Source: a virus. Taken from it: DNA of 64,000 nt. This document shows, piece by piece, positions 2,146 to 47,499 of the stretch. The stretch spans positions 7,624-71,623 of IMG/VR virus record IMGVR_UViG_3300042464_000191; one strand, given 5' to 3'. The stretch's first letter is position 1, and the number at the start of each line of letters is the position of its first letter. The notes under the pieces were generated by a model that saw nothing but the letters and a program-made list of their open reading frames with translations, made no database searches and was not told the origin of the DNA. Position numbers and translations under genes: made by a program.

Positions 2146-2179
2146 ACATTGATTGAGTCTCTAGTTGCGAGGAAAATAT

Positions 2180-6405: not shown

Positions 6406-6406
6406 T

Positions 6407-25959: not shown

Positions 25960-27630
25960 TTAATGATCCAATTCGTATGTCCAACTTAAATTAATACTAT
26001 ATCTTCCCTCTTTTGGTGTCCAGCTTTCGCTTGGTGGATTAAGAAAATACTTTCTAACTCCCGGCTCGTATGCTGGACTCAACTGTTTGATTAAAGTATT
26101 TAGCTGTGATCTAATTGGTTCTCTTAAACTTGGCTTAGATAATAGCAATGGGTTACGACCACTAGAATATGGTACATCGGTGTAATCTAATAGAATTTCT
26201 ATACCAACGTCTCGTCTATATTCTGTTCTGCCTCCGATATATTGTAAAACTGGTCCGGTTGTTCTACCAAGAACTGGTATAATAGCAAATACGTCGCCGG
26301 GATAGGTATCATTAACATTGATGCTTTCAGATAGTACCCCGCTGATGAAATTAGTTGGACGATTATCAAATTCTACATTATATGTGATTTCGCCAGTAAA
26401 TTCATTCGTTGCTAAAGCTATAGACTTTGGTTGACTATTTAGAGTTGTATTTGCAGCATTACAGGCTCTTTTATAAATGTACGAGGTGATGCCATATGTT
26501 CCATTGTTACTTACTTCAAAGTATTTTGTTTTAGCGTTATCAAATGGGCTTGGTGTGCCAGTTGATGGAGTTATACCATTGTATAGACTTCCACTTGCTG
26601 GTATTACTGATAAGCCTTTGATGGTTCCATTGATACTAGCAGATATAAATGGACTGTCTATACTAGCATTAATAGATAGATTGTAATTCTCATAAGCAAT
26701 TCCACTAGTAAGCAACCATGTATCTGTGATGCTAAAAGTGCCAGCGGTTTTATCAATATTTTCGGTACGTGTGTGGTTGGTTGCCGAATATACGCCAGTT
26801 AAAGATATAACATAATCGGATAAAGAAACCCCTAAAGTATGATTAGGATATTTAGCATATCCGCCATTACTATCATTTTGTATAACCGATTTTTTAAGAA
26901 AGTTTCTAGCCTCAAGCCAGCCGTATAATCTACTGGTAGCAGCATTGCCACTTGGGATAAAACCGTCTCTCCCTGTAGCTGTCAAGTTTCTAGTTAATCT
27001 ATAGGTGCGTGGATTATGTGGCCCCAAATCTCCTCTAGTTTCTCCAATGCCCTCATCTACTTCCATAGACCAAGTTTCAGAAAAATCTTCCACCAATCCG
27101 CCAAATTCAGCAATTAATTCTATTTCTGTTTTGTTGCCAACATTATAGCCATCAGGCGCATATGAACTATCGATATAAACTTGATTGTTGTTTTTAAGAA
27201 TAGAATCTGCTCTGAGATTAACAGTATATCTACATAGATCTACATAAACACCTTCTTCGAATGAGATACTAACTAGCTTGGGATAAAATACTATCGGTGG
27301 AGTATTGGCTGGAGCAAATTCGAATCTAGATGCTTCTAGTGCAAATAATTCTCGCAAAGCATTTTGCTTGGCAAAAATAGATCCTAATCTTGGCAGATCA
27401 CCACCACCTCCGTAGCTAATAGTTTCGCCTAATGGTCTATTGTAATTATTGTGGTGCAAACCAGTAGAAAATGGTGAACCTTCATCTGCTAATATTGTTC
27501 CAGTTAATACAATATCATAAGATGAACCTAGTGTTCCGGTTTTATTTTTAATTGGTGTGCATGTTATAGACACAAGAGGTGTTGGTCGAATAACAGCCTG
27601 TAAACCATTACTTGTAGTAATTAATAGCAT
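25960..27630 (-). CDS. Putative distal tail/tail-tip protein
   Basis: 556-aa beta-rich ORF with repeated E(S/T)W..G.(Y/F)SI strands; genomic position. Confidence 0.55.
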   Translation of the reverse strand: MLLITTSNGLQAVIRPTPLVSITCTPIKNKTGTLGSSYDIVLTGTILADEGSPFSTGLHHNNYNRPLGETISYGGGGDLPRLGSIFAKQNALRELFALEASRFEFAPANTPPIVFYPKLVSISFEEGVYVDLCRYTVNLRADSILKNNNQVYIDSSYAPDGYNVGNKTEIELIAEFGGLVEDFSETWSMEVDEGIGETRGDLGPHNPRTYRLTRNLTATGRDGFIPSGNAATSRLYGWLEARNFLKKSVIQNDSNGGYAKYPNHTLGVSLSDYVISLTGVYSATNHTRTENIDKTAGTFSITDTWLLTSGIAYENYNLSINASIDSPFISASINGTIKGLSVIPASGSLYNGITPSTGTPSPFDNAKTKYFEVSNNGTYGITSYIYKRACNAANTTLNSQPKSIALATNEFTGEITYNVEFDNRPTNFISGVLSESINVNDTYPGDVFAIIPVLGRTTGPVLQYIGGRTEYRRDVGIEILLDYTDVPYSSGRNPLLLSKPSLREPIRSQLNTLIKQLSPAYEPGVRKYFLNPPSESWTPKEGRYSINLSWTYELDH

Positions 27631-30600: not shown

Positions 30601-33600
30601 ATTACTAATCTCTTGTTGCCAAAATTTAACCAATTAAATAGATCTAATAGTTCTGTTTGATTTGGTAGATTAGTTGGATCGGCTATCCAGCATACATCAT
30701 CTGTAGAATATAGCTTGTTAGCATATCTGACTTCATTACCAGTATTCGTGAATAGCTCTGCTAAAATAGAATCTGGATCAGCATCTGTAAAAGATGATCT
30801 TCCTGTCCAAGTGCCAGATCCTAAGAAAGCAACTAAAGATTCGCCATACCTTGTTCTTGCAACAGTATTTACATAGAAGTTAAGATTTTCGTCTCCCGTT
30901 CCAGAATATACAGCGGATTCAGATTCTGTTTTTGTTCCAGCAATGACAATGATTCTTGATGATGTGTTATTGAATTGTTGCGTAGCGCAATATACGCCAT
31001 TTTCAGCAACCATCTGACGAGAAGTAATTAATCTTTCATCAGAAATGGCTTTTCCTTGTAAGACTGATTGTCTATCTGCAAATTGTTCTGGCTCAAAAAA
31101 TACGCCAGCGGATTGATTATTACCGATATTGGTATTTAAAGAAATATAGTTATTACCACTGGCACTCCAATAGAACTGTGTGCCACTAGCCATATTGCCT
31201 TCGTCGAAAACATCTATGGTTCGATCAAATACTGTCTTGTAAATTGGATAATATCCAGATGAGTCTGGAGTAGCTGGTATAACAGTTTTTTCAACAATAT
31301 AGTCAGCGGTCGATAGAATTGGAATTGGTTCAAATCCGGGTAGATCAAATCTATCCTCATCCTCAATTGGTTCGCAGCAAGACGGTTCGAATGTTTTGAA
31401 TACATAAGGCCAGTTAACTGGATAAGTTAGCGGATATCCTCTGCAATCGGCGCAATAATCTTTCCATTCGGCTCTTAAGTCGCCATTGTGAACAAGTGGT
31501 AATTCGCATTTAGTATTTACTAATGCCCCCGGCTCACCATCATAACTAGGATATCGTCTATCGCAAGGCATGTATCGATAATAATCCGGCATATGCATAC
31601 GAATATCACCAACGCCATAACCCTTAAGTGGAACACCATAAGTAAATGTTGATGTGATACGTTCCGGCTTAGTAGATGGTATAATGTGTCCTTCTACCAT
31701 ACAGCCAGAAACCAGAGCTTCATATTGATTTCTTGCTCCGTGAATACGCATCCTAGACTTTAATCTATCTAGAATTTTATTGATGATCTCGTTAGACTTA
31801 GCATATATGCCATCTTTTTCCCAAACAGGATCATTGCCAACTAATACTAGATTTCTATCACCAAGAGCAAGCCATTGTGCGATATTATCACCAACTTCTT
31901 CACTCAATGCATCTACTTCTGGAGTAATGATAAAGGCTAGTCCAGCATCCTGTGGAATATCTACTTCTGTAAACTCTGTCTTTCTGAAATTTTTATCAGA
32001 GAATATACCACTTAAGTAATTAAAGTGACCAGAATCAATTGGATCATTCAAGCTTTCTTGTAGATTACCAAACTTAGTATATTCTACAACTGAATTATGA
32101 GGGTAGTATTTGCGAGATTCAAATACGCGAACCGCACCGGCGTTGACATAAGACTTCCAAGTTGGATGAACATTACCAGTATTTAGATTGTAAATATTGT
32201 TTGGATCATCGTATCCATCATTCTTGTAGTATATATTGTTATCTTCCCACTCGTTTGTGCTATCAGTTGGCGCGCCGAAAGCAACAATACTGCCATCTTC
32301 ATTGACGGCTGTACTATATCCAAGTCGTGATGTAGGAACAAATCTTTCGGTAATAAAGTCCCAAGTACCAATAGAAGAAATATCTCCATATCCATAAGAT
32401 AAGATATTTTGATATTCTTGAATATTTAGATATTTTCTTGCTTCAAATTTTTCTGTTGATGTTAGGCTAACATATAATTCTTGTCCAGCAACTATTGCCC
32501 CACGGTTTTGAATAGTTGTATTATAGATTTCTTTTAGGTTCGTGTATCTAGAATCTAAACCGCCAGTGGCAGAGATTTTATAATCAAGCCACCTAGAAAT
32601 AGTTTGATAAAGTCGCTGCTTTTCTGCGGATTTATATTCATAGACCCTACAAGAATCTGAAATATATGGCGATCCTACGGCGATAACTTCAGCATTATCA
32701 CTAATAGAAACAGAGTGTCCGAATCTATCTGGAATACCATAAGCGGTGATGGGTGTAGGAATTTCTTGTGTAAGATTCCAAGAGCCACTTTCTTTTTCAA
32801 ACACATATACTCTACCACCGCTATCTGGTGGGAAATTAAATTGTGTGAGATTTGGGTTAAAGTATTGTTCTCCAACCCCAGATGTTAGGAATCTAACTTG
32901 ATCATTAGCAACTAATCTTCCTGTATCTAAAACATGGTCGAGAATATCTATACTCATTGACACCCAATTTTCGGCAGCGCCAAAGTTTGGAGTAAATTCT
33001 GAAAATGCTCCAGATGCTGGTGTGTTATAGAAATCTTTCAATCCACTAGCAAAGCTATATTCTTTGTAGTATTGGATGAATTGATCTATTGCTGGAGAAA
33101 GAGCATCCCTACCCAATGACCTTGAATTATCTACATATAATCCAAGAATAACTGGGATATTGTTGTTTAATTTAGTCTCATCAATCGGGAAAGCTTTATG
33201 AAACGCTTCCTTGATTCCACTCAAACATTTTGCAGTCTGAGAAATAAATAGATCCGATCCCGGTCTACCTTGATTTCGGCTAACTTTTTGCTTGATTATA
33301 AAGTTGGGCTTGGGATCTGGAAAATCTGGCGTGGTTCTATTGGTAGAATCAGCGATTGGCTCGCATATTATTAGCTTTACATCAAAATTAATTGGTGGAT
33401 TTGCGAAGTATTTGTATAGTATATCTTTATTGCGAATACTAGATAGTACAGTCCTGTAATCTGTTGTGTTTTGACCGGTGCCATATGATGGTGCGAACTC
33501 GTCTGTGAAAATCACTAATCCAATCTGCACCCCAGATGTTTGTATACCTTCGAATGTTCTGCTCCACTTGGCGTTTGGCCCACCAACAACCAGAACCTGT

Positions 33601-36600
33601 CTTGAATCTTCTCCAAGTGACTTTTCACCGGATGTAGATAAAGCTAAATCCAAAGAATGTCCAAGTTGTCTTCCTTCTTGACCAACTGTCCAATACCTTT
33701 CTTTGGCTGGTAATGGTAAAGATACATTATCAATAGAATACTTTTCTACTTCTCTGTAATAATCTTTGATAAAGCCAGATGGTAATGTTAATTTAGTCTC
33801 TAGTTTCCAATCGGACTTGTCTTGTCCAGAGGGCCAAGTATAAGATGTTGGCCTTGGATCTCTCTTGTAAATAAATACCGCACCGGCTTCTTCAAGATTA
33901 TAAGACTGTTCACCATCATCATAAGAAATTGAATGAAATGGAGCGCCAACGGCCATAACATCTCGTTTAATGGCAACAGATTTTCCAAACTTGTCATTGG
34001 CTTGTCTATAATCATCTCCAAATTTATCGGCAACTAATTTGATTCCAGAGTAATCTACTGATTCATTAGTGCCATATTCCATCTCAATGAATTCAACTGG
34101 AAGAGGGACGCTTTCATTATTTCCTGTTTGTCCGTCAACAATTATTTGATATGGTGAATTTGGTAATAGTCCAGTATATTTTCTAATACCGTAGAAGTGA
34201 CCGCTATATCCTATTTCAGTCTTGAATCCACTTGCTTCAAGATTAGTATAAGTATTTTTTGCTCTAAAAATTCCACCATCTATGCAAGAATATGGAACAC
34301 TCCATAGCTGCTCATGCATATAAACGCTATCTTCTTTGCAGGCATGGCTACTGTTGCAGTTTCCATAGCATAATAAATCTACGCCGCGAATTTCATCATT
34401 AGCTTCTAAGAAAGCGTAGTCATTATCATCGACATTGATGTTTGAGCCGGTATTGTCGGAATCCCATACTATAGCCTGTCTAGCACCAAACACTTGATTA
34501 AATGGGCTATAGTTTATAGTAAATAGATTACATGTTCCACTTGCAAATGTGCGTGGCTCAACAGTATTAATATATAACCTAAGTACATTGTCACCGCCGT
34601 CATATGTATAAGCAATTGATCCGGCTGGCTGTGTCTCTAAATGTAATGGTAAAGAACCCTTTGCAAACACTGACGAAAGCTGTGGAGAAGCTGTCAATGA
34701 GAAATTTAAAGATGCATTATTGAAATCAGTCTGAATAATATTTTGAGTAAATAATCTTAGAGATCCACTAGCAGACTGACTAGTGATATCATTAATAGTA
34801 ACAAGTGGTAGTATTTCATCGTTGAATTTATTGCTCCTACCAGCAACATACAGATTCGGTCCAAGATAATATTCTGATCCAAAGAAATCGCCAAAATTGC
34901 CGCCACCGGTTGAACTATCTAGTGATGATTTGTTGAATGTAACTAATCTTAGACTTGAACTGTCATAATATGCACCAGATGCAAACAAATTAAATACAGA
35001 AGAAGATACTGGTAGGTAATCTCCTTCTACGAAAAGGTCAAAGTTGGTAGAGTAAATACCATAGGTATCAACAAACAAATTAAGATTGTCTAGCCATTTC
35101 TTTTCACCACTGGTACTCAATCCTAGTTGAGTATTGTGATCCTGCGAGGTCAGTAAAGCATTTTCTAAACGAACATTGGCGGTGTGTATTTTGATTATCG
35201 ATTCAAATGGAGAGCCAGATGGATATACTAAATCATACTGCAAGAACATATCATTTATATCCTTGGAGTAGTATTTTTCAGTAAATTCAGTCACATTCCT
35301 TTCTGGGTCAAAATTAGCCCACGGCTCTGACTTATCAAACAAATCACCGGGAGTAAATGTACTACTTATTTTTTGCCAACATCCAGATGGTTCCAAGAAA
35401 TGGATGGAGCGATTAATTAAACCCCAATTTTTCTTGCTTGGTCTATCTGTTGGATTTTGATTTGTAGTATATAAACTAACAATTACCTTTGGACCGATCT
35501 TACCATCGTTCCATACAATATTATTGTATGTGTCATGTTGTAAAACCGTATCTACAACTATAGCATCTTCAACAAACTCATATCCTCTTGGTAAGGTCTT
35601 AGAGATTCTTGGATGTGCCGAGTAAAATCTAGAATTGTTCTCAGAATCCTCTACGTTATCTAGATAGAATCTTAAGAAATCATTCTCTATTTGGGTATGA
35701 TATGCCAAGCCGGAAGCGTAGACGTTGGATGGCAGCGGTTGATTTGTAATATCAGAGTATGGTCTGCCATCGTGCTTAAGTCTATGGATTATGAAATCCT
35801 TACCTTCTCGCTTTGTAAAACCATCAAAGTCTGCCGAGAAAGAACAAATTTTAAAGTCACCAAGCTTCCAAGAAGAAATATCTTCATCAATATAAGAATG
35901 TAATTCGTAGTTTGATCGCAAGAAACTATAAGCAGTTGTTTGCTTTAAATATCTATCGGGATTTGAATGTACAATATTCCCACTTGTAGATACGCCTACT
36001 TCGTGAACAAATATATTTGAATTTATTAATGTTGTATTATTGTATCCTATTATAAGATCGCCTGTGCTATCTACTAAATTAATGGGGCCAATAGATAAAA
36101 TATCTATAACATCACCATTTGCTGAAGCAGCATAAAGACGTATAATACCACTCGGGTTTTTATCATATGTGAATAGCAACGATAAAGGATATTGGTAATT
36201 ATCATATTCTTGACCATAATCCGCGTATATATTGAGATTTTCATCAACTGCGGAAATATATAATCTATTATCTTGACTTCCATCAAAGCCAACAATTATA
36301 CCGGCGTTGGTAAAACTTTGCACTTTAGATATTAATAGATTATCTCCAGTATTATAATCAACACCCGGAGTGAAGTTGAGATAAATTGCAAATCCATTAT
36401 CGATTGAGATATTTCTAAAATTTATATTGTCAATGCCAGATAAAGCAATCGCTGAATCAAATGAGTCGATCAAGTGTCCATATAGTGGGTTATCGTCTTG
36501 TGTCCAATCTATAGTAGTATAGTCTGTTGGATTGCTAAATAACTGTGTGTTACTGAATCTCCATCCTAAATTTTTGAGAATATTGTTCGACCCAGTGTAA

Positions 36601-38972
36601 TAACCACTGTTTGCAAAATCGCTAGATATAATCCAGTTTCCACTTGAATTAGTGAAATCATAATAACCGTTTAAGAATGGGTGGTTCGCTTCTGGATTGA
36701 AGAAGGAAAAATCAAATTGATTGGGGTTGTATGGACCATTTACAATATTGCCATCTACGCCTCTCCATCTTCTAGCGTAGTTATTCTTGGACTCTACTGT
36801 AAATGCACTTGGTATATTTTCGATTAATAATGATTCTGAATCAAATATTGGATCAGATATTTTCTTAGGAGATGGCTTTAGATTGATAGTTCTTAAAGCA
36901 ATATCTGTGGCTATAGGTCTACCAAATGTAGAGAGCATTAGACCATTTGCGGGCTTGTATGTTATAACAAGCTGTGCTGTAGCAATGGTTGCTCCACTTG
37001 GAAGTGGATATAGATCTAAATATAGATTCTCAAAATATGAGCTATTGGAATAGTCGATAGAACTTCCTACGTCAACATTATCTTTATAAATAGCTAGGGG
37101 TATTGTGTATTCTTGAAATTGAATGCTGTTTACTACTGGCGTACTTGATAAAGCATAGTGATCTTTAGCTGGATTAAGTGTGATATCACGCACATAGTAT
37201 TGTGATTTATCGCTAAGTGTTTCAGATGATATACCTAAGTCATCAATGTGTTTAAATCCAGACACATCTGGAACATCTCCATTTTGAGATTCTGAATTTT
37301 GTAAGAAAGCCCCAATTTTAGGAGTAATATTGAGCAAACCATCATCGCTATAACCAACAACATCTAAGGCATAATCACGACTACCAACAGCTTTCTTAGC
37401 TATTACCTTGAGTGAAATATCTTGGATAGTAAAGAAGTGATCAACTTGTTCAAGGGATTGAAGTCTAGCAACATCGAACTGATTTTTTCTTCCAAATGCG
37501 AACGGGCCTTCTGAATATCCGGTTACATTTCTTGGTGAGCTATGTCCAAACTTTAATGTTAATCTTCCACTATCATTAAGTGGTGTGCTATTAATAAGTG
37601 TCACATAATCGTATATAGCTGTGTTCTGTAATTTTGATGCCAAGTATTTACTACCACTAGCAGAAGTGTTATAAGCAGTATTATCAAAGGAATCTGGAGA
37701 AGATTCCCATAAGCTATATGTTTCTGGATATACATCAATATCTTCATTGTATTGAATAACATCAATGGGTACTAGATTTCGGGTTAATAAAAGACCCTCT
37801 TGATTGATTTCGGTGACTACTGGTAAATAAGCATTTCTGACGATGCCAAAGCCGCCACTATTAGCAATTTCAATAGCAGAAATACGAATAGCATTATCTG
37901 GATTAAGCGAAAAATTTTGGGTTTGAGTTGATAGCGGCGACCCGTCTACTGATAGATAGTCATTATTACTAGCAAGCAATACATCTATCTTGCATGTATC
38001 TTCGTATCCCTTATCAAACCCTTCTGCGAATGGATCGTCTAAACACTGAATATTAAAATCAATATTGAGTGTATATCCGCTAGCTTCCTCCATGAGAGGA
38101 TAGTTATCTTCCCAAGTATTTAGAAGTAGATTGTTGATCTCTGGTTCAGAAATATATGTTGTAAAGTTTACATAGTCTTTGGAGTAATCGGCATCTCCGC
38201 GAATAACTATATCCTTATATTTAATGATCAGATTACCAGATGGATCTTCTAACCTAATATTATGTAATCTATACTGTGGTGGAATATCAGAAAAATATGT
38301 TGATACTGGCGCAGCGGCTCTTATGAATAAGAAACTATTTTCAGCATGGAATAAAGGCGTAGTAACTTCGCACTTATATCTAAAGTTTCCACTAGTAAAC
38401 ACAGATGACGGTTGTATAAACGAATCTTTTTCATCAGATATAGTTTTGCCACTTTTACCATGCTTTGTGAAGTTTCCAATGCTAACGCCCTCATCGATGT
38501 TTGTATAAAGCTCTGATTGATTAGAGTACTTATCTACAAAGAAACTATTATTTAATGAAGATGAGATATCTTGAATGGGATATAGTTTTTCTGATGCTAT
38601 GAAATTATCAAAGCTATTGATTTGAGTTAAATATCCACCAAATTTTTCTGTCTTTACATCATCGATCTCTGAGCTTGATTGTACTCTTGCTCTGATAACG
38701 CCTTTAACTTGAAGTTTGGCACGAATATTTCCTTCGGCAGATTCTGATAAATCAAATAAGCCGTGGGATAATAGATATTTGCCTTTGAGTTTTGATACTC
38801 CAGCAACTTTGGCCTTCACTCCCGGCCTTAATGAGTTACTTGGATTTATGTCACTATTTCCAGCGATTCTTATATATGGATTGCTGGTGACTGTGGCTCT
38901 GGCGGTAAACTTACTAACGCCAGATGTTCTAGACGAATGTCTAGTTGTGCAAAGTAAACAAATATCAGACAT
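27630..38972 (-). CDS. Giant (~3780 aa) virion adhesin: LamG-like domain, LxLF/Y repeats, seven FG-GAP repeats with inserted domains
   Basis: FGKSVAI..VGAP, LGHSLDL..VGGP, FGHSVSI..VGSP, LGYSTAV..FGAP, FGYSIDL..VGSP, FGYDVSI..VGAP, FGRSVSI..IGAM, most followed by G(A/S/R)(V/A)(Y/F/R)xF/Y; start probably ATG 38972. Confidence 0.8.
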   Translation of the reverse strand: MSDICLLCTTRHSSRTSGVSKFTARATVTSNPYIRIAGNSDINPSNSLRPGVKAKVAGVSKLKGKYLLSHGLFDLSESAEGNIRAKLQVKGVIRARVQSSSEIDDVKTEKFGGYLTQINSFDNFIASEKLYPIQDISSSLNNSFFVDKYSNQSELYTNIDEGVSIGNFTKHGKSGKTISDEKDSFIQPSSVFTSGNFRYKCEVTTPLFHAENSFLFIRAAAPVSTYFSDIPPQYRLHNIRLEDPSGNLIIKYKDIVIRGDADYSKDYVNFTTYISEPEINNLLLNTWEDNYPLMEEASGYTLNIDFNIQCLDDPFAEGFDKGYEDTCKIDVLLASNNDYLSVDGSPLSTQTQNFSLNPDNAIRISAIEIANSGGFGIVRNAYLPVVTEINQEGLLLTRNLVPIDVIQYNEDIDVYPETYSLWESSPDSFDNTAYNTSASGSKYLASKLQNTAIYDYVTLINSTPLNDSGRLTLKFGHSSPRNVTGYSEGPFAFGRKNQFDVARLQSLEQVDHFFTIQDISLKVIAKKAVGSRDYALDVVGYSDDGLLNITPKIGAFLQNSESQNGDVPDVSGFKHIDDLGISSETLSDKSQYYVRDITLNPAKDHYALSSTPVVNSIQFQEYTIPLAIYKDNVDVGSSIDYSNSSYFENLYLDLYPLPSGATIATAQLVITYKPANGLMLSTFGRPIATDIALRTINLKPSPKKISDPIFDSESLLIENIPSAFTVESKNNYARRWRGVDGNIVNGPYNPNQFDFSFFNPEANHPFLNGYYDFTNSSGNWIISSDFANSGYYTGSNNILKNLGWRFSNTQLFSNPTDYTTIDWTQDDNPLYGHLIDSFDSAIALSGIDNINFRNISIDNGFAIYLNFTPGVDYNTGDNLLISKVQSFTNAGIIVGFDGSQDNRLYISAVDENLNIYADYGQEYDNYQYPLSLLFTYDKNPSGIIRLYAASANGDVIDILSIGPINLVDSTGDLIIGYNNTTLINSNIFVHEVGVSTSGNIVHSNPDRYLKQTTAYSFLRSNYELHSYIDEDISSWKLGDFKICSFSADFDGFTKREGKDFIIHRLKHDGRPYSDITNQPLPSNVYASGLAYHTQIENDFLRFYLDNVEDSENNSRFYSAHPRISKTLPRGYEFVEDAIVVDTVLQHDTYNNIVWNDGKIGPKVIVSLYTTNQNPTDRPSKKNWGLINRSIHFLEPSGCWQKISSTFTPGDLFDKSEPWANFDPERNVTEFTEKYYSKDINDMFLQYDLVYPSGSPFESIIKIHTANVRLENALLTSQDHNTQLGLSTSGEKKWLDNLNLFVDTYGIYSTNFDLFVEGDYLPVSSSVFNLFASGAYYDSSSLRLVTFNKSSLDSSTGGGNFGDFFGSEYYLGPNLYVAGRSNKFNDEILPLVTINDITSQSASGSLRLFTQNIIQTDFNNASLNFSLTASPQLSSVFAKGSLPLHLETQPAGSIAYTYDGGDNVLRLYINTVEPRTFASGTCNLFTINYSPFNQVFGARQAIVWDSDNTGSNINVDDNDYAFLEANDEIRGVDLLCYGNCNSSHACKEDSVYMHEQLWSVPYSCIDGGIFRAKNTYTNLEASGFKTEIGYSGHFYGIRKYTGLLPNSPYQIIVDGQTGNNESVPLPVEFIEMEYGTNESVDYSGIKLVADKFGDDYRQANDKFGKSVAIKRDVMAVGAPFHSISYDDGEQSYNLEEAGAVFIYKRDPRPTSYTWPSGQDKSDWKLETKLTLPSGFIKDYYREVEKYSIDNVSLPLPAKERYWTVGQEGRQLGHSLDLALSTSGEKSLGEDSRQVLVVGGPNAKWSRTFEGIQTSGVQIGLVIFTDEFAPSYGTGQNTTDYRTVLSSIRNKDILYKYFANPPINFDVKLIICEPIADSTNRTTPDFPDPKPNFIIKQKVSRNQGRPGSDLFISQTAKCLSGIKEAFHKAFPIDETKLNNNIPVILGLYVDNSRSLGRDALSPAIDQFIQYYKEYSFASGLKDFYNTPASGAFSEFTPNFGAAENWVSMSIDILDHVLDTGRLVANDQVRFLTSGVGEQYFNPNLTQFNFPPDSGGRVYVFEKESGSWNLTQEIPTPITAYGIPDRFGHSVSISDNAEVIAVGSPYISDSCRVYEYKSAEKQRLYQTISRWLDYKISATGGLDSRYTNLKEIYNTTIQNRGAIVAGQELYVSLTSTEKFEARKYLNIQEYQNILSYGYGDISSIGTWDFITERFVPTSRLGYSTAVNEDGSIVAFGAPTDSTNEWEDNNIYYKNDGYDDPNNIYNLNTGNVHPTWKSYVNAGAVRVFESRKYYPHNSVVEYTKFGNLQESLNDPIDSGHFNYLSGIFSDKNFRKTEFTEVDIPQDAGLAFIITPEVDALSEEVGDNIAQWLALGDRNLVLVGNDPVWEKDGIYAKSNEIINKILDRLKSRMRIHGARNQYEALVSGCMVEGHIIPSTKPERITSTFTYGVPLKGYGVGDIRMHMPDYYRYMPCDRRYPSYDGEPGALVNTKCELPLVHNGDLRAEWKDYCADCRGYPLTYPVNWPYVFKTFEPSCCEPIEDEDRFDLPGFEPIPILSTADYIVEKTVIPATPDSSGYYPIYKTVFDRTIDVFDEGNMASGTQFYWSASGNNYISLNTNIGNNQSAGVFFEPEQFADRQSVLQGKAISDERLITSRQMVAENGVYCATQQFNNTSSRIIVIAGTKTESESAVYSGTGDENLNFYVNTVARTRYGESLVAFLGSGTWTGRSSFTDADPDSILAELFTNTGNEVRYANKLYSTDDVCWIADPTNLPNQTELLDLFNWLNFGNKRLVITYNTDSLIENEIDIKMNFIASLLSNFCNIKPLYLNVDNKYASASARSLLFNGNTFISQGFNVNSSIDVFSYNGTVNYVPLALGENAVNVCANNVPIYDTKYDTLGYWKMRTGVTKVTFPVVEGSGYKIFIDTVSELPSENRPLYFSISNVGSNPKSPFPDLNSGLDSSIYDTPPDSETKFVVETASIGFVGELRNDSNNKIKTQTINCQATAGATSISIYLYNNYAIDNTNIDYRPHSIRLHAISGVAMPIVQRFTTKDVIDRWEPYLISAARPEIVNYNIKFQELANDNTKYCNNEQTCLDNGMGGQLIKDGPVVAAQEQEITSSFTSGYERSRITVISDSSLVQGRCMVDDQGRMSANTVAFIRSLYPPTFFAGVNSGRQFNQRTKLMSPERGSPIRYNSVIPNSGLTTLFNGNLNQTPLSSLTDKESLYNPIYVKRTDNPWSQFDDPETVERKKRAKIAEFISLASEAGAMPRFSGIIEGVMYEDAGREGGMPQLMKDKGYDYLDFDRVPSGFKGDLFGYSIDLQGDKLIVGSPLSAYSLNEYKPWSYFIEGGSQSGIRASYNGGAGSVYIFEKTYMGSGIAGRTVPWEFTQKLRPEDINVGQDLTNGIESQAESKLGTNSYTDEFLTANSFVTDQFGYDVSIDGDILLVGAPGHDFENYSINTYASGSFIRKCFNPEFDIPSRTVIDLGSSGIRSSMENSGIAVLNRGAAFTFENKIVDWPTKRQKWTKVEKIVPQGYKANAQAYSENDAFGRSVSIDRARRSDSDYVIGIGAMNHGYSASGSVDNEYVEYAGAAYTYDIMLRGVAPAVQSPDAYIDAKIFGERNESGVPTVQLRFSNENNANFKHFASGIVYTNNQGEIFIEASGQDPVSKGLISHRPYISSVNGQYVYGTQNSGIMPLFIDGKIDVDNNMNLFTHVDDVANVYNTLGMYTGSVMDIVSNDPSGLMLYVHTPDATIVSESGLILYTASGIGLNTDTINLSIRGK

Positions 38973-38988
38973 ATTTAATCCATTAATA

Positions 38989-41900
38989 TTAAATTGGGGC
39001 AGATGGACTGCCGGGTAATGATCCACTACTTAACTTTAATTTACCATCATTTCCAATGCTAGCATTTTGAAGCTTGTTGGACACCTCTGTGAGTACAGCC
39101 TGTTGAACGTCTTTGGTGAGCTTGGCTAGGAAATCTCCACCACTTAAATTTACATTAATATTGGTGGCATCTAATTTGATACTAAGATTAGTGTTAGCTA
39201 GTTTATCTATATTAGCCGATAGATCAACATTAAACTTATCTAATGTTGCCATTAATTTATTGACAATTTCTGGATCTATTCCACCGGAAGCCTGTATTGG
39301 AGTAGTTGTTCCTGCGGTCTGGTTGGTAAGAGTACCGCCACTTAGAGTTTGTTGACTAGCTCTTCCCGGCTGAGTTTGACTAACTTGCATGGCTTGTACA
39401 CCAGATTGATTGAGTAGTTCATTTGCTTTTTCTGGAGTTACTAGCGATGCTGGTGGTATATTACTCATCGGGGTTGCGACGGCTTCTGCCGTTGCCTTTG
39501 CTTGAGCTTCTTGCTGTGCGGCAGCTTCTGTTTGTGCTTGTTGTGCAGCCTTTTGTTGCTCAACATATTGCTTGTATTCTTGAGTATCTGTTCCAGCGCC
39601 ACTTAACATACTTGGCAACCAATCGTTGGCGGTTCTTTCTTGAATTCTTCTAGCCTCTAAATCTTTGAGTTCTTTTTGTGCTGTGGCAACACCAGTTTGA
39701 TCACCCTTGGCTTGTGCTGCGGCTAATTGATTTTCTCTCATGGCCTGCTCTTTGGCCCATGTTCTTTCTTGTACATTTAATCCAGTAGCATCTACTGTGG
39801 CAGCTTTCATCTTTTCTGTTTTTGCTGCGGCTTGTGATGCCGCCATAGCATCCTTAGTAAAGTCCTTCATTACATAGCCAGCTTCTACAAGTTTACCAAC
39901 TGGATCAACGAATCCTTCTAATGCGCCAGCGGCAGAATCGTAAGCAAATCCAGCAGTATCTCTTGTTTGCGCCCTTGCTAATCCAGCATCAGACTTGCCT
40001 TGCATTTTAGCATTATAAGCAGATGGATCATAGGCAAATTCTGCAAGATTAGTAACACCACTGATGGCGGTTCCAAGACCTAAACCTCCACCCTTTGTTA
40101 ATAAACTTCCAGCGAATTTACCAACACCACTTCCAGCAACCTTTGCTAAAGTTTGACCGCCAAGTAAACCCGCCCTACCAGCCAACGTTGAACCGGCAGT
40201 CTTGGCTGCTTGCTGACCAAACATTCCGCCAGCATTTGCTAAACCGCTGCGTCCTACATTGAAGCCTTTAAGTAAATTGCCACCTGCGGTTCCAGCGGCA
40301 CTTAATCCTCTTTGTGCCATAGGTAATGCTCTTAGTCCTAATCTTTGAGCTTGAATACCAACCGCTCTACCCTGAGTAGCTAAAGAGCCACCAAGTTTAC
40401 TTATTGCAGACGGAGCGCGTAATCCAAGTCTTTGAGCTTGAATACTAGCGGCTCTAACGCCGGTTCCAACTTTATTACCTAGTCTTTGTGCGCCAACTCC
40501 AGCTTTTTGTGCTAATGTAAATGCCTCATCTTCCATACCACTGCCAACAAGACCTCTACCAAAACCAAAGTCTTTTACTAAGTTAGATGCTCCAGAAACT
40601 AAACCTCGACCACCAACAGCGTTAATGCCTCTTTGTGCTAAACTAGATGCTCCAGAAGCTAATGGTGATAATCTATTACCAATTGCTCCAACTCTTTGAC
40701 CAAGAGCCATTGCTTTGCTACCGAATGTGGGTGCGGTTGTGCGAGACAGGCCAGTTCTAAAGTTTTGGAAACCTTGAACTCCCTTTTCAATTAAAGCGCC
40801 AGCTTTTCCAGCCCTAGTAGAAGGAGTTAATCCTTGTCTTTGTAAACTTCGTCCAGATTGTAAATAATTGTATTGCTGTGCTGTATTAGCTGGTAAATTC
40901 TGTGCAAAATTTTGAGCTTTAACACTAAATCTGCCAAGTCTAGCAGGAGCAGTTTCACCAGCCTGTGCTGCAAAGCCAGCTTGTTCTAAACCTCTACCTA
41001 TTCCAAAACTTGCGGCACCATTTCTTATGGCCGTTGTTGTATTTTGTACGCCGTATCCAAGTTTGCCAACCCTGCTTAATCCACCGCTACTCATTCCGAT
41101 CTTGGCAACGTCCATGCCAGCCCTAAATCTACCGGCGGCACCACCAACGGCATTAACGGCTGATGGTCCAACTGCATATCCTGTGGCTGCTAATCCGGTG
41201 CCTCTTCTTATTGATCCGAATATATCTCTATTAACCGGCTCTCCAGCCGCAGCTACAGTGGCAGCACTAACTCCACCGGCAACACCAGCAGCAACTCGAC
41301 CGCCAGTTCCACCGGTTCCACCAACTCCACCAGCACCTCCACCACCAGCTACGCGACCGGCTGTTCCAGCGGCGGCTGTAGCAGCGGCATTGGTTGTTGC
41401 AGCACCACCAGTACCGCCAGCACCGCCAGATGTTGCTGGAGTAGATGGACCGCCAAGCTTTAATGTTTCACCGCCAGCAAGCTTGATTTCTGCTTGTTCT
41501 ACATTAATCTTAGCTGTTCGAAGCTTCATGGCTGCTAAATCAGCTTGTACTTGACCAGCGTCAGCTAGCTCATTTGATAATCCACGAATATTAGCATTTA
41601 TTCTTTCTTCTTCAGCGGTTGTTCTGGCCGTTAATTGTGCGGCTCTTGGATCAGTTACACCTCTGGCTGCTAATGATGCTCCTGCGGCTCTTTCTGTTAA
41701 GCCGCCAGCGCCAGCAAGTCTTACGCCATAAAGTTCTTGTACTCCAGCCTCTTGTTGTCTTTGAATATCAGTATAAGCAGCACCAAGAGCTTTGGCACCG
41801 AATTGATTCATTAATGTTTCATTACCAGTAGCGATAGCGGCAGTAGCACCAACTGCGGCTTGTTGTTCAAAGAATTTGTCAACATCGCCAGCTATAAGAG

Positions 41901-44900
41901 CGTCTAACGAATCTTTTTCAAGTTTATTCTTTTCTTGAATAAGCTTTAATTCGTCTTCTTGTATCTTGATCAACTCTCTGATGGTGCTGATCTGGTCTTT
42001 ACTTGCTTTTTCTAGATCAGCTTGAATAGCATCATCTACAACGCCCTGTGTACCAGCCATTCCTCCTTCAACGGTTCTTTTTCCTTCTATTCCAGCGAAT
42101 TGTTGTCGTATCTCGTCATTTCTGCGTCTTAATTGATCTACACCGCCACCTTGTAGGTTAGAAAGTCTCATTCTTTCTGCACCAGCGTTAGCCCTAGCAA
42201 TAACGTTAGCTTGACGTTCAGCATTTGTAACAGCTTTACCGCCATATTTACCTTGAAGTTCTCTAGCTTCCATTTGGATGGATAGAGCTTCTTTTTGGGC
42301 TTCAATGTAGTTGCGTTCAGCTTCTATTCTACGCTTAGTAAGTTCGATTAATTGTTGATGTATCTTAGCATAATTATCAACAATCTCTTGCATTACTTTA
42401 CTAGCTTCTTGACTTACACCCTCTAGAGTTTCTCCAAGTTTATCATAATCTCCTCTATCTATGGCATCAATAATATCTTGATCAATTGCTCCCATTGAAT
42501 CAAGAATTCTGTTACGCACATCTTCACCAACTCCGCTAGCGTCTAATTGGGCGGCAACCTCTTTTTTAAATACATCAGCAATACTATTGGCTTCCATTCC
42601 CCTTAAATCTTGAGACTGAAGGTTACGCTTAATATTCTCAAATATGGTTGGGAAGTTACGTTGTACAGTTGCGGCAGCACCAATGTTTTCTCTAAACTTA
42701 GTGATCTCGGCTTCGGATGCTCCAAATTGTTTGAAGACACCGCTTACTTCATCTAATGCTGAATTAACTTCGTTTTCACTAATCGCTTGACCGGCCTTAG
42801 TAAGTGATGCCTCTAATGTTGCTACTGCTTGTTGTGCAGGAACAGCCCCAACTTCAAGATTCGCTACGAAATTATTTAGCCTTAAAGCAGCAGCTTCTGA
42901 AGTAGCACTAACGGTTCTAAATCCAAGATTAATAGCAGCAAATCTCTTTCTTGCAAGTTCTATCTCAGTAGATAGATTCTTAAAGCTTTGTTCTAAGAAA
43001 TTTATTTCATCATCTATTTGTGCTATATCTAAACCAATAGTTTCGGCCTGTTGCTTATTGCCAGATTTTTCAGCGGCTGCTTGTTGTGCCTTAAGATTGT
43101 CTCTTTGCTGTTTAAGCTCTGTAGGAGTTAATATTTGTCTAGATCCATCTGGACCTCTAGTAGCGTTACTAATAGTAGTGTATACATCCGATTCTGATCT
43201 ACCGCGATAAATGTTCTCACGCATAGCTTGAGAAATATTACCTCTCATAGATTCAAGATTTTGATTTCTAAATGCTCGCCTCTGCTTGGATGTATCCGCT
43301 ATTTCTCTATCAATACGCTCATTTCTACCAGCACCAGACTCAACGCCCAATAATCCAGCTATACCTAAAGTACCAACTCGTAATGCCCCTCTACCAAAAC
43401 CGCTGAGAGTACCACTCCTACTATTTTCTTGTGCAGCAATAGCTCTATCATATGCGGCAGATTGTGCAGCCATTTGGGCTGCTCCAGATGCAGCTAATCT
43501 CTTTAATGCTTCTGTAGCAGAAATAGATCCAGTTTCTAGATCTTTCATAATTTGAGCAGAATCTTTTGTTCTCTGCTCAAAGGCTTTGGTGGTCTTAGAT
43601 GCATTTGCTTGGGCGTCAGCTAATGCTATGGCTGATGCCCTGTTTCTACCTCCAAATAGTTCGCTTACGGCATCAGTAAGATAACTGGCGATTGGTAAAT
43701 TAGCAAACACTCTACCTACACCAGCACCAATTGCGGCACCTATTGGGCCACCAACTATTAATCCAATAATTGCTCCAGCGGAAGTACCAACATTAGCACC
43801 CTCAAGATTGGTTTGACCACGGGCAGCTTTTCTAGCACCCTCAACGTCTCCAAGTTCAATAGCTTTATTTAGTTTTGCTGTTTGGTCGAATAGTGCTTTG
43901 AATATTGTATTGATAGAATAAACAGCTAATGTAACACCAGCTAATGAACCAGCAAATTTAGCCAATCCTCTGGTTACTGTAGCGATTTCTGGTCCAAATT
44001 TAGCTAATCCGGGTATTTGTTCAGCACCTAATCTCGCATAAGTGCCAGCACGATTAGCAAACTTACCACCTTTACCAGATAATAAGTCAAAAATACTACT
44101 TAAATTTTGTTTATCAAGTTGTATTTTAAAAGCTTCTAAAGCAAACCCAACGCTAGCTAATGTTGTTGTAAGACCTAGCATACCGTGAGTGAGTTTTAAT
44201 ATTACGCCAGAGCTTTCGTCTACTGCTGGTAAAAATCCTTGTGCTAAACTCGATATAGTTGATGCAGCAAAGAATTTATTACTATTTATAACCTCACCAA
44301 TGCTACGTCTTTGATCGTCTTGAGCGTCACTAATTCTATCTGTTGTATCAACAAATCTTGCTACAGATTGAGTAGCGGCTGTCATATTTGGTAATGAGCC
44401 GGGAGCGCCCATTGGTAAAGTAGCTCCACCGGCTGCAAATTTTTGAACACCAACAACTCCACCCTTTGCATATTTGCCAACCTTGTTCATGCGGTGTAAT
44501 GAACTATATCCGATCTTTTGGGCAGAAGCACGATTAATAACAAACTCACCGGGAGTTAATAATGCTGGAACAGTATCAGTACCAACATTTCCACCAGTAG
44601 CAAATCTAGCAACTCTAGTCGATCTTGGACCCTTGGTTCGTAAAGCGTCCATCGCTGGTTGCTTGCTGCCACCCTGAGTAAAGATCATATTAGCAAGTGG
44701 AATGCCAAATAATTGACTTAGATATTCTGCAACTCCCGGCACTCTTTGAGACTTACTAAGAATAGATAATTTTCCGGGTTGTAATTGTCCAGACTTAATT
44801 GCTGCTTGTAGTTCTTTTCCGAATGCTGTTAAAGGTGCTGATGTAACATCTTTTAATCTAGCCTGTGGATCGCGGAAATATTTTTCTAATGCAGCTGATT

Positions 44901-47499
44901 GTTGACCAGATGTTTTAGCCATACCATAAGCTTTATCGCCAATTGTACGCTTGATAGTTCTGTCGATGTCGATAGCTCCACCGCCAGCACGGATTAAACT
45001 AGCAATAGCAGAACTTGGACGAGGCATCATGGTGCCACTGGCATTTACAATATCGTCAATTAGTGGGGCTTTTGCGATACCGCCAGATGCTAATCTCATA
45101 ACCCCATCTAAATTATTTTTTTGTATATCTTGACGTAGTTTATCGATTATACTCTTATTAGTTTTAGAGGTTTTGCTTCTTTTGGCATCCGCTTTAATTA
45201 AAGGGGTTAGTGAAGAAATATCTGTTGTAAACATTGCAGCTAATTTAGCTTTATTATTAGCTACATTGGGAAAATCAAAACTTTCTCTGCCTCCAAGCAG
45301 TTTGGAACCAGTAATACCCTGTATGATACCTTCAAATAAATATCCACCAACAGTAGAATATACTTGTTTATCTTGAGCAATTGCGTTTGCCGCATCATTC
45401 AATGTATTTTCATCAAAATTTATTTGAGGCATGTCTAAGAAGGCATTTACTTTTGGTAAAGCTTTCTTGACTCCCAATCTTAATCCTCCACGGGCAGAAG
45501 AATCTATTATCTTATTGAGTGCAGCATTTTTCTTAATATCTGTTCTATATGGAACAAAGTTTGAGATTGTTGATCCGGGTGCTATTGCTGCTTTTTGACC
45601 ATTTAAATCAAATGGATACGGGGCTGATAATACATAAGGAGAATCTGTGCCGCTCTCTGGTGTTAAAAAGAATCCACCGATTGCTCCCGGTATTGTTCTA
45701 AATACGCCACCGGGATATTTAGACTTTAGGGCATCATCTGTTGGAATTTTTGAAGATTTTCTTTTTCTGGTTTTTGATCTTTCTTTAGAGGCATTTGCAG
45801 ATGCCGCTGTGCCTAAAACTTGATCGATTGCTTCCTTACCATAACCTTTAGATAATTGCTGTCTACTGAGTTTACCAGAAGCAATGGCTTCTTCTAAAGT
45901 CATATTCGCTGTAGCTTTAGTCATACCGCGAGGTGGTAAAGATCCATATAGATGCTTAGACTGTTTAACTACACCACCAGCTTCGTACTTATTTTCATTC
46001 ATAGCAGCAAGATTACCAGCACCTAATCTCTTGACGCTACTCTTTCTGATAACAAATTCTCCCGGCTGTAACATTGCTGGTACAGTGTCTCTATTTCCAG
46101 AACCGGGAACCATTCCACCTCTAGCAAATTTATGAACTTTGCCGCCTTGGTTGAAAGTGCGACTAGACTGTAAACCGCCAGCAACGCTACCAACGAATGT
46201 TCCAAAACCTCTAGCGATTTTAAGGGCTGCTAGAGAAGCTAATAATGGAAGCAATGGCTTGATTGCTTCAGAGATTTTCAACAAAGCAGAAGCAAGAGAT
46301 AAGGCAGTATTTGCCATAACTTGGAACGTAGAGGTTTCAGTTATACCTCTAACTAAAGCTAAGAATTCTTCTTTGACCTTAATAATTCTAATAGCTAACG
46401 CTTGCTGTGCTGTTGCAGCATCTTGGGCCAAAGAGTTGCCAGCCTTTGTTGCAACATTGAGGGCGGCTTGTGCGGTAGAAAATTGCTGTAGCAATGGTAA
46501 TACTTTACCAATCTGTCGGAATCCACCAAGTTCTTCAGCAATTCTAATGAATGTGATATCGCCTTCACCAAGTCCAGACAAAGCTGCACTTAATCTTCTA
46601 ACAGCTTCGAACGGTCCAACGAATTTACCTTCAAGATCAACAAGTTCAACGCCGAACTGTTTCAAATATTCAATAGTCTTTGGTCGTTGAATACGAGTAA
46701 AGATAGTTCGTAAACCAGTACCAATACTTTCAGCACTTTCACGGGTTGTGGCTCTTACTGATGTAAATAAAGCAAGTAGTTCATTTAAACTACCGCCAGA
46801 AGATTTGAACACACCGCCAGTTCTACGAATAACGTCGATTAAGTCGCCAGCTTCTACGGCAAACGCGCCAGCAACAGCATTAATAGATCCTAACTGACCC
46901 TCTAATGCTCCAACTCCTTTTTGGAATTGTGCTAAAATAGCAATGGCACCTTCAGCAGTTTCGGTAATGCTGTCGAAGTTAGGAGCAAGAGCCGCTTTTG
47001 CTAAAGACTTAAGAGCAACCTCTGTATCTTTAGCAGAAAGACCAGCCTGTAATAATACAGTAGAAACTTCTAATAATGAACCGGATGAAACACCAAGGCC
47101 GGTTGCTAATCCCGTGATTGTTTTAGTCAATCCACGCAATTTAACTAAACTATCACCAGTTACCTGAGAAACTTTAACCATCTGTCGTTCAAAATCAATA
47201 GCTGTTTGAACGGCATCGCTTAAAGTACTAGTGAATAATCCTACTGCTCTGGTAGCAATAGAGAATGCAGCAAAGCGACGAACGGATACAGCAAAAGCTT
47301 TACCCATCCTCTCGGCTGCACTGGCAGCTTGATTGGTTTGGGCGGCTATTTGCTGTATCTGTCGTTGAGCTTGTGGAGCGCCTTGAACTTGCACATTTAC
47401 ACTAACCCCATTCAGTTGACTCTGAATTTGGCTAACTACTTGTGCTACATTCGTTGGTGCTTGTAATTGTAGTTGTGCTGTCAGTACAAATCTTGACAT
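38989..47499 (-). CDS. Tape measure protein (2836 aa) with internal cargo domains
   Basis: AIDFERQMVKVSQVTG, TRESAESIGTGLRTIF tape-measure core; two DTVPA(M/L)LxPGEFVI motifs; long helical and Gly/Ala-rich regions. Confidence 0.92.
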   Translation of the reverse strand: MSRFVLTAQLQLQAPTNVAQVVSQIQSQLNGVSVNVQVQGAPQAQRQIQQIAAQTNQAASAAERMGKAFAVSVRRFAAFSIATRAVGLFTSTLSDAVQTAIDFERQMVKVSQVTGDSLVKLRGLTKTITGLATGLGVSSGSLLEVSTVLLQAGLSAKDTEVALKSLAKAALAPNFDSITETAEGAIAILAQFQKGVGALEGQLGSINAVAGAFAVEAGDLIDVIRRTGGVFKSSGGSLNELLALFTSVRATTRESAESIGTGLRTIFTRIQRPKTIEYLKQFGVELVDLEGKFVGPFEAVRRLSAALSGLGEGDITFIRIAEELGGFRQIGKVLPLLQQFSTAQAALNVATKAGNSLAQDAATAQQALAIRIIKVKEEFLALVRGITETSTFQVMANTALSLASALLKISEAIKPLLPLLASLAALKIARGFGTFVGSVAGGLQSSRTFNQGGKVHKFARGGMVPGSGNRDTVPAMLQPGEFVIRKSSVKRLGAGNLAAMNENKYEAGGVVKQSKHLYGSLPPRGMTKATANMTLEEAIASGKLSRQQLSKGYGKEAIDQVLGTAASANASKERSKTRKRKSSKIPTDDALKSKYPGGVFRTIPGAIGGFFLTPESGTDSPYVLSAPYPFDLNGQKAAIAPGSTISNFVPYRTDIKKNAALNKIIDSSARGGLRLGVKKALPKVNAFLDMPQINFDENTLNDAANAIAQDKQVYSTVGGYLFEGIIQGITGSKLLGGRESFDFPNVANNKAKLAAMFTTDISSLTPLIKADAKRSKTSKTNKSIIDKLRQDIQKNNLDGVMRLASGGIAKAPLIDDIVNASGTMMPRPSSAIASLIRAGGGAIDIDRTIKRTIGDKAYGMAKTSGQQSAALEKYFRDPQARLKDVTSAPLTAFGKELQAAIKSGQLQPGKLSILSKSQRVPGVAEYLSQLFGIPLANMIFTQGGSKQPAMDALRTKGPRSTRVARFATGGNVGTDTVPALLTPGEFVINRASAQKIGYSSLHRMNKVGKYAKGGVVGVQKFAAGGATLPMGAPGSLPNMTAATQSVARFVDTTDRISDAQDDQRRSIGEVINSNKFFAASTISSLAQGFLPAVDESSGVILKLTHGMLGLTTTLASVGFALEAFKIQLDKQNLSSIFDLLSGKGGKFANRAGTYARLGAEQIPGLAKFGPEIATVTRGLAKFAGSLAGVTLAVYSINTIFKALFDQTAKLNKAIELGDVEGARKAARGQTNLEGANVGTSAGAIIGLIVGGPIGAAIGAGVGRVFANLPIASYLTDAVSELFGGRNRASAIALADAQANASKTTKAFEQRTKDSAQIMKDLETGSISATEALKRLAASGAAQMAAQSAAYDRAIAAQENSRSGTLSGFGRGALRVGTLGIAGLLGVESGAGRNERIDREIADTSKQRRAFRNQNLESMRGNISQAMRENIYRGRSESDVYTTISNATRGPDGSRQILTPTELKQQRDNLKAQQAAAEKSGNKQQAETIGLDIAQIDDEINFLEQSFKNLSTEIELARKRFAAINLGFRTVSATSEAAALRLNNFVANLEVGAVPAQQAVATLEASLTKAGQAISENEVNSALDEVSGVFKQFGASEAEITKFRENIGAAATVQRNFPTIFENIKRNLQSQDLRGMEANSIADVFKKEVAAQLDASGVGEDVRNRILDSMGAIDQDIIDAIDRGDYDKLGETLEGVSQEASKVMQEIVDNYAKIHQQLIELTKRRIEAERNYIEAQKEALSIQMEARELQGKYGGKAVTNAERQANVIARANAGAERMRLSNLQGGGVDQLRRRNDEIRQQFAGIEGKRTVEGGMAGTQGVVDDAIQADLEKASKDQISTIRELIKIQEDELKLIQEKNKLEKDSLDALIAGDVDKFFEQQAAVGATAAIATGNETLMNQFGAKALGAAYTDIQRQQEAGVQELYGVRLAGAGGLTERAAGASLAARGVTDPRAAQLTARTTAEEERINANIRGLSNELADAGQVQADLAAMKLRTAKINVEQAEIKLAGGETLKLGGPSTPATSGGAGGTGGAATTNAAATAAAGTAGRVAGGGGAGGVGGTGGTGGRVAAGVAGGVSAATVAAAGEPVNRDIFGSIRRGTGLAATGYAVGPSAVNAVGGAAGRFRAGMDVAKIGMSSGGLSRVGKLGYGVQNTTTAIRNGAASFGIGRGLEQAGFAAQAGETAPARLGRFSVKAQNFAQNLPANTAQQYNYLQSGRSLQRQGLTPSTRAGKAGALIEKGVQGFQNFRTGLSRTTAPTFGSKAMALGQRVGAIGNRLSPLASGASSLAQRGINAVGGRGLVSGASNLVKDFGFGRGLVGSGMEDEAFTLAQKAGVGAQRLGNKVGTGVRAASIQAQRLGLRAPSAISKLGGSLATQGRAVGIQAQRLGLRALPMAQRGLSAAGTAGGNLLKGFNVGRSGLANAGGMFGQQAAKTAGSTLAGRAGLLGGQTLAKVAGSGVGKFAGSLLTKGGGLGLGTAISGVTNLAEFAYDPSAYNAKMQGKSDAGLARAQTRDTAGFAYDSAAGALEGFVDPVGKLVEAGYVMKDFTKDAMAASQAAAKTEKMKAATVDATGLNVQERTWAKEQAMRENQLAAAQAKGDQTGVATAQKELKDLEARRIQERTANDWLPSMLSGAGTDTQEYKQYVEQQKAAQQAQTEAAAQQEAQAKATAEAVATPMSNIPPASLVTPEKANELLNQSGVQAMQVSQTQPGRASQQTLSGGTLTNQTAGTTTPIQASGGIDPEIVNKLMATLDKFNVDLSANIDKLANTNLSIKLDATNINVNLSGGDFLAKLTKDVQQAVLTEVSNKLQNASIGNDGKLKLSSGSLPGSPSAPI

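Follow-up and report, generated by a model that had tools for sequence, protein, structure and literature searches.

We analyzed a stretch of viral DNA, positions 7,624 to 71,623 of the IMG/VR virus record IMGVR_UViG_3300042464_000191, and refer to the whole of this 64,000-nucleotide stretch as the window. Its tape measure protein (TMP), P0001, carries a dense cluster of [FYL]xxGG motifs in which two copies of a junction module, homologous by profile comparison to part of lambda gpH, enclose two units (A and B). Related proteins exchange these units at the motifs, and unit B keeps a set of conserved, active-site-like residues. TMPs are ejected into the host, are sometimes processed and are sometimes enzyme-bearing. 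We lean towards the view that residues ~449-1025 make up a cassette of cargo and that its junction words signal processing by a protease acting in trans, because the TMPs of lambda and T5 offer precedents and because the same word bounds every exchangeable unit.

Motif cluster and junction module

By profile match and length, P0001 is a TP901-type phage tail tape measure protein. It is a very long open reading frame (ORF; Table 1) and the Pfam family PF10145 PhageMin_Tail matches residues 128-312 well above its cut-off (E 2.2e-23, 83.6 bits versus 33.2). PHROG tape-measure families match it too. The PhageMin_Tail N-terminal domain is all that Pfam finds in the protein. Neither TIGR01541 tape_meas_lam_C nor Pfam PF09718 Tape_meas_lam_C matches P0001 at E ≤ 1; lambda gpH scores 448.7 bits on TIGR01541.

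An original prediction, made from the sequence alone, had named seven [FYL]xxGG motifs and a DTVPA(M/L)LxPGEFVI module at each end of the cluster. All seven were found within residues 449-1025 (FNQGG starting at residue 449, FARGG at 458, YEAGG at 505, LASGG at 803, FATGG at 966, YAKGG at 1010 and FAAGG at 1021), as were both modules, with DTVPAMLQPGEFVI beginning at residue 471 and DTVPALLTPGEFVI at residue 975. An eighth motif, FTQGG at residue 940, had been overlooked; it falls within unit B, which is conserved, and does not mark a junction. These eight motifs in residues 447-1027 compare with a mean of 0.94 when the stretch is shuffled, and none of 5000 shuffles reached eight. All seven [FY]xxGG motifs of the entire protein fall in the same stretch (shuffle mean 0.42; 0/5000 reached seven), and the remaining ~2250 residues hold only four more motifs, all LxxGG.

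When P0001 is scanned with a profile made from related loci, two modules and no more are found; we call them M1 and M2. The module spans ~60 amino acids (aa) and comprises [FY]AxGG, a short Gly-rich spacer, a beta-hairpin-like DTVPAxLxPGEFV core, a helix with MN as its usual ending and, last, another [FY]AxGG. Since the [FY]xxGG motifs belong either to a module or to a single junction between cargo units, there are no free-standing sites. The core is almost invariant across 342 distinct instances from 121 proteins, which were picked with a regular expression that itself fixes some columns. M1 and M2 are only 72% identical as DNA, with synonymous differences, so conservation acts at the protein level. 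Relatives contain three position-specific subtypes (M1, M2 and M3), each kept across phages. The module is predicted to be disordered, with a predicted local distance difference test (pLDDT) score <50, and a complex prediction with three M1 copies (alignment A3) returned “no answer”, scoring 0.01 against a mark of 0.42 in a run without controls.

With the module profile, built from 39 sequences, the number of matching representative proteins is 22,178 at E ≤ 1e-3 and falls to 6,787 at E ≤ 1e-10 and to 1,195 at E ≤ 1e-30; the top matches are giants as long as 7,872 aa. In the 252 proteins examined there are 2-10 copies per protein. The spacing between copies has two peaks, one at about 200-700 aa and another at 1000-1300 aa. 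The distance from the last copy to the C-terminus has a median of 174.5 aa, which resembles the position of the copy in lambda. Two giants, P0123 (7794 aa, 10 copies) and P0125 (7872 aa, 9 copies), have many copies spaced ~1000-1260 aa apart and give the impression of several tape-measure units in a head-to-tail series. Among cultured phages, 24 records match through the module only, none of them covering 80% of the query. The TMP of Achromobacter phage JWF has a module about 60-120 aa from its C-terminus, that of Gordonia phage Yeezy has three copies, and in T4-like cyanophages the module is part of a 766-aa protein that occupies the gp29 position. In Synechococcus phage S-SM2 (L119 4005-6305), the module of this protein scores 65-70 bits at residues ~331-380, and the gene sits between baseplate hub genes and a transglycosylase gene. 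Because this T4-like cyanomyovirus has a strong copy, the module is not confined to siphoviruses. Judged by its profile matches, it is an ancient and very widespread TMP element.

The comparison with lambda rests on several searches. With hhalign, the module profile aligns to gpH residues 731-790 over 58 columns (probability 93.6%, E 2.1e-7), and the lambda copy includes FATGG and YATGG on either side. When all PDB sequences were searched by profile, gpH was the best match of alignment A2 (E 0.022), the M2 part aligning to gpH 730-786. Alignment A3 returned the TMP of mycobacteriophage Douge first (E 1e-7, two copies) and gpH second (E 2.9e-4). On these alignments, the P0001 module is homologous to gpH 731-790; the residues common to the module and lambda are only P-A, G-E-F-V, one Lys/Arg, one Gly and one Leu. 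The two proteins (gpH as in PDB 8IYK, chain H) share the same module with both [FY]ATGG words. In gpH it follows a hydrophobic, Gly-rich stretch, and in P0001 a hydrophobic stretch at residues ~395-445, read from the translation, precedes M1. Unlike P0001, lambda has one C-proximal copy and no cargo; the N-terminal domain of P0001 is of the TP901 and not the TMP_2 type. The available text of PMC12617516 gives residues ~690-817 of gpH as missing from the solved structure, and only residues 1658-1699 of the Douge TMP were built (PMC13033339); no structure has thus shown the module so far.

Table 1. Features of the TMP gene, given as residues of P0001 and as positions in the window
Feature	Residues	Window position	Strand	Description
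TMP gene P0001	2836 aa	38989-47499	-	one ORF
Module M1	449-509	45973-46155	-	FNQGG, FARGG, DTVPAMLQPGEFVI core and helix, YEAGG; hidden Markov model (HMM) match of 84.2 bits, residues 461-505
Basic linker and unit A	510-802	45094-45972	-	conserved core ~640-800; alignment A1
Junction motif LASGG	803-807	45079-45093	-	relatives read [KR]FAxGG; homology-block ends pile up at 790-809
Unit B	808-965	44605-45078	-	HAD-phosphatase-like alpha/beta domain (probable)
DIDRT	844-848	44956-44970	-	DxDxT motif of unit B
Module M2	966-1025	44425-44604	-	FATGG, DTVPALLTPGEFVI core and helix, YAKGG, FAAGG; HMM match of 78.6 bits, residues 965-1009

Cargo units and their exchange

BLAST comparison with 120 relatives splits the stretch between the modules into unit A (~515-800) and unit B (~805-965). 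To describe unit content, we took 154 relatives and left out 11 without an N-terminal module. Among the remaining 143, both units are present in 23, unit A alone in 17, unit B alone in 90 and neither in 13, giving unit A in 40/143 and unit B in 113/143; these counts mix non-independent proteins and loci, maybe from the same or closely related phages, which lowers their weight as support for a cassette. The start of unit B ranges from 35 to 1152 residues after M1. Counting homology blocks of at least 120 aa, 208 of the 348 internal block ends are no more than 10 residues away from a motif, where 19% would be expected; the relatives compared are, here too, not independent. The swappable, motif-delimited cassette of the original prediction is thus borne out: relatives gain, lose and replace units, and the breakpoints coincide with the motifs.

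Other cargo occupies the same slot. The Pfam family ADPrib_exo_Tox was detected in six proteins among the 120 relatives listed, and in the two that were checked, P0074 and P0038, the ADP-ribosyltransferase domain lies exactly between two [FL]AxGG motifs. Clustering of 588 motif-bounded segments gave 26 single-linkage clusters. Because units A and B were merged into one of them, we do not use this figure as a count of cargo families. On a related virus contig (L022 9216-9371) the TMP is encoded in two frames, and the break lies within the coiled-coil part, not at a motif; a frameshift, a mistake in assembly or a genuine split might explain it.

Unit B is the better characterized of the two. Across 94 distinct sequences sharing 48-98% identity, about 39 residues, many of them polar, are invariant or nearly so, and D844, D846, R847, T848, S915, K916, S917, N937, T941 and K946 are invariant in all 94. 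The structure model reaches a pLDDT of 64-88 over residues ~826-964. The description of the inter-motif segments as non-helical and enzyme-like therefore holds, with moderate confidence, for the alpha/beta domain of residues ~826-964; it found no footing in residues 440-810, for which the AlphaFold2 model (mean pLDDT 45.6, from a 10-sequence alignment) is unusable.

We think it probable that unit B is a HAD-derived domain with an intact nucleophile motif. The DxDxT motif follows a strand of the model (E47-50) and aligns to DIDDT of AphA, the position of HAD motif I. HAD phosphatases head all three fold searches (AphA 1z5g, 3pct, phosphoserine phosphatase 1l8l and the T4 Pnkp domain 5uj0). In a VIA-align search of 48,161 chains the first ranks went to acid phosphatases of classes C and B (Z 7.0, 6.6, 6.5 and 5.6), the best match aligning 123 residues at a root-mean-square deviation of 3.4; CheY-like receivers (Z about 5) and more HAD enzymes followed. 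The rows listed by Foldseek against PDB and BFVD are nearly all HAD phosphatases, nucleotidases and Pnkp phosphatase domains. Unit B seems to resemble these enzymes in the DxDxT that follows strand 1, in a helical insert separating this strand from strand 2, in a Ser behind strand 2 and in a Lys that is invariant; unlike them, it is embedded in a TMP. An hhalign comparison with 77 AphA sequences pairs DiDRT with motif I, SKS with motif II and IFTxGxxK with motif III.

A number of results count against the HAD assignment of unit B. The unit B model is weak (mean pLDDT 57.9, a 10-sequence alignment and three strands only). No chain reached Z 8 in VIA-align, where Z 7-8 is typical of models without a true match, and the best Foldseek E values were 4.3e-3 and 5.5e-3, with none ≤ 1e-3. 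The AphA comparison is not significant (P 0.018, probability 2.5%). No acidic pair of HAD motif IV was identified in unit B, the AphA motif IV falling in a gap. M2 was considered as the missing motif IV or last strand of unit B and rejected: in the hhalign comparison the last AphA strand is already paired with the end of unit B, M2-type modules are also found where unit B is absent, and the model leaves M2 disordered (pLDDT <50). There was no HAD chain among the PDB sequence matches, and a Pfam search of residues 440-1040 at E ≤ 1 returned no family. In the ESM Atlas, unit B matched only unnamed viral clusters, with scores ≤ 0.89. Among proteins of 92-296 aa, no free-standing homologue of unit B was found by a shared-word search, which may miss distant relatives.

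Unit A is the less well resolved, as its unusable model indicates. E723 (in GGYLFEG), D742 (in FDF) and D771-A-K773 are kept in 10/10 aligned relatives (alignment A1; window 45100-45582, minus strand), and the order E...D...DxK recalls, at the level of sequence, PD-(D/E)xK nucleases. Unit A has no PDB sequence match and no usable ESM Atlas match. A shared-word search of proteins of 118-378 aa, which may likewise miss distant relatives, found no free-standing homologue.

Processing of the cassette and competing explanations

In the arrangement that we favor, the two module copies would fence the cassette, with two independent globular units, A and B, between them. The TMP would enter the host ahead of the DNA, taking both units along. 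The [KR][FY]|AxGG junctions would most likely be recognition sites for proteolysis, either in tail maturation or after ejection, and a putative protease would act on them in trans. Host delivery, enzymatic activity and any cleavage are what we infer from the observations above, and cleavage at the motifs is plausible in view of lambda and T5.

In lambda, gpH loses a ~14-kDa C-terminal piece through a cut in its Gly-rich C-terminal region, which yields gpH* and gpHC (PMC12617516, available text). By calculation, a fragment of 14 kDa would begin near residues 710-725 and a cut after FATGG would leave 12.3 kDa; gpH 731-790 falls within the Gly-rich region of processing or directly behind it. In T5, a cut behind R1127 divides pb2 into pb2* and pb2C. 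The available part of PMC10038345 places this cut between a hydrophobic stretch and the muralytic domain, so that the domain is parted from the TMP body. The word AEGG, one of only two AxGG in the 1219 residues of pb2, directly follows R1127. The T5 protein thus resembles the proposed system in a cut that separates an enzymatic domain from the TMP body and in the word after the cut; it differs in that its cargo is single, C-terminal and a peptidoglycan hydrolase. We rejected pb2 as a homologue of the module, as hhalign gave a probability of 0.07% and there was no HMM match.

Polymorphic toxins with a conserved pre-toxin motif embody a wider idea, to which phage MuF-toxin fusions are akin. In these fusions, as far as the accessible portion of PMC7302621 goes, a VIP2-like ADP-ribosyltransferase is joined to MuF, and a conserved virion-protein scaffold carries exchangeable enzyme or toxin domains past a conserved boundary, as in the P0001 family. 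Their scaffold is a head protein, not a tail ruler, and their boundary motifs are different. Thermus phage P23-45 offers a second likeness in gp96, a TMP fused to the virion RNA polymerase, in which a giant TMP brings a large enzyme into the host; here the enzyme is N-terminal and unrelated, and the available text of PMC10770324 describes no junction module or cassette exchange.

Several observations weigh against processing in trans at the junctions. No peptidase was found by Pfam among 28 neighboring proteins and no protease by PHROGs among 10. Lambda gpK is made up of JAB and NlpC/P60 domains; the Pfam scan of the 28 proteins found no JAB or NlpC/P60 protein of this kind in the window. An annotated NlpC/P60 gene lies downstream of the TMP gene in Achromobacter phage JWF. 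As pb2 has no detectable module, the T5 parallel rests on four residues, and the lambda cut site is described as unmapped and its catalyst as unknown (PMC12617516, available text). The C-proximal module copy that most relatives have is absent from P0001. Modules also punctuate helical ruler segments of ~1000-1300 aa that carry no cargo. Since the module separates such long helical segments, it need not concern cargo release.

These cargo-free segments favor the main rival, in which the modules and [FY]AxGG words are structural, serving as hinges, register marks or binding sites for chaperones or the tube, and the cargo stays tethered for life, as the gp96 polymerase of P23-45 appears to. The conservation of each of the subtypes M1, M2 and M3 by position also suggests position-specific partners. 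In addition, the available text on P23-45 mentions no TMP cleavage (PMC10770324), and the module is missing from the gpH and Douge structures. A plain hinge, however, needs no aromatic-Ala-x-Gly-Gly word at every junction, and the two TMPs whose processing has been studied, those of lambda and T5, have their cuts at, or adjacent to, a word or module of this kind, as far as the available texts on them go. We regard the structural explanation as unlikely on balance, though with a real minority chance of being right. A slim chance attaches to the idea that the inter-motif segments are variable ruler filler and the motifs recombination scars or DNA-level crossover sites. The breakpoints at the motifs would follow from it, and units A and B have neither free-standing relatives nor a Pfam family. 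Against it stand the invariant and near-invariant residues that unit B keeps across 94 sequences, the genuine ADP-ribosyltransferase domain that relatives have in this slot, and the conservation of M1 and M2 as protein and not as DNA.

The original prediction had gone further and suggested that the DTVPAxLxPGEFVI module is itself an autoprotease that cuts the neighboring xxGG sites. The lack of a named catalyst for gpH cleavage (PMC12617516, available text) and of a protease gene nearby would suit this idea, and most variants retain the Glu of GEFV as well as an acidic residue ahead of P-A. Yet no Ser, Cys, His or Thr nucleophile is common to the P0001 family and lambda, and the module is only ~60 aa long, is predicted to be disordered and also punctuates the ruler segments. 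For T5, the title of Zweig and Cummings (1973), a reference of PMC10038345, points to a host role in tail protein cleavage. This part of the prediction did not stand up, and we consider an autoprotease the least probable of the explanations, very improbable in its own right. A cassette with junctions cut in trans remains the reading that we prefer.

Genomic setting and biological meaning

The source record is a 71.6-kb virus with a CheckV completeness of 45%. Window positions 44300-46300 showed no DNA similarity to known phages, and among the structural neighbors of P0001 no PHROG family was assigned to 10 proteins and no informative Pfam family was found. Directly downstream of the TMP gene and overlapping its end is an ORF of 3798 aa (window 27630-39026, minus strand) with only FG-GAP repeats by Pfam and no family in PHROGs; its product probably belongs to the tail tip or a fibre, as a giant protein. 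Within the TMP, a glycine-zipper-like hydrophobic stretch at residues ~1227-1322 (window ~43500-43820, minus strand) has a weak PdsO match, and relatives have Gly-zipper Pfam families. A long Gly/Ala-rich tract at residues ~2010-2060 (window ~41300-41500, minus strand) coincides with a local rise of the G+C content to 46%. Elsewhere in the window, DNA polymerase III alpha (2165-6042, plus strand) seems to be split into two ORFs, one with PHP and NTPase parts (2165-3808) and one with finger and HHH parts (4441-6042), and a 228-aa ORF lies between them (3795-4481). A plus-strand block (64-1047 and 6374-10177) encodes a radical SAM/SPASM protein and three group-1 glycosyltransferases.

In the literature searched, we found no description of a conserved junction module common to at least 22,000 protein clusters, of its homology to the processing region of lambda gpH, or of its fencing exchangeable enzyme-like cassettes. 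Should the junctions not be cleavage sites, the module would still be an unannotated and very common TMP domain that merits a family model. A broader and more doubtful, though possible, reading is that the module and the [KR][FY]|AxGG words are a near-universal TMP processing signal of sipho- and myoviruses, and that giant TMPs are polyproteins cut at up to 10 signals into ruler pieces and free enzymes. If so, HAD-like phosphatase, ADP-ribosyltransferase and nuclease-like domains would act in the host at DNA entry, and the so far unmapped cut site of lambda gpH would be predicted. If the junctions are cleavage sites, they would show, in concrete and testable terms, at which place and in what way lambda-type TMPs are processed, and would open up a large unexplored reservoir of injected phage effectors.

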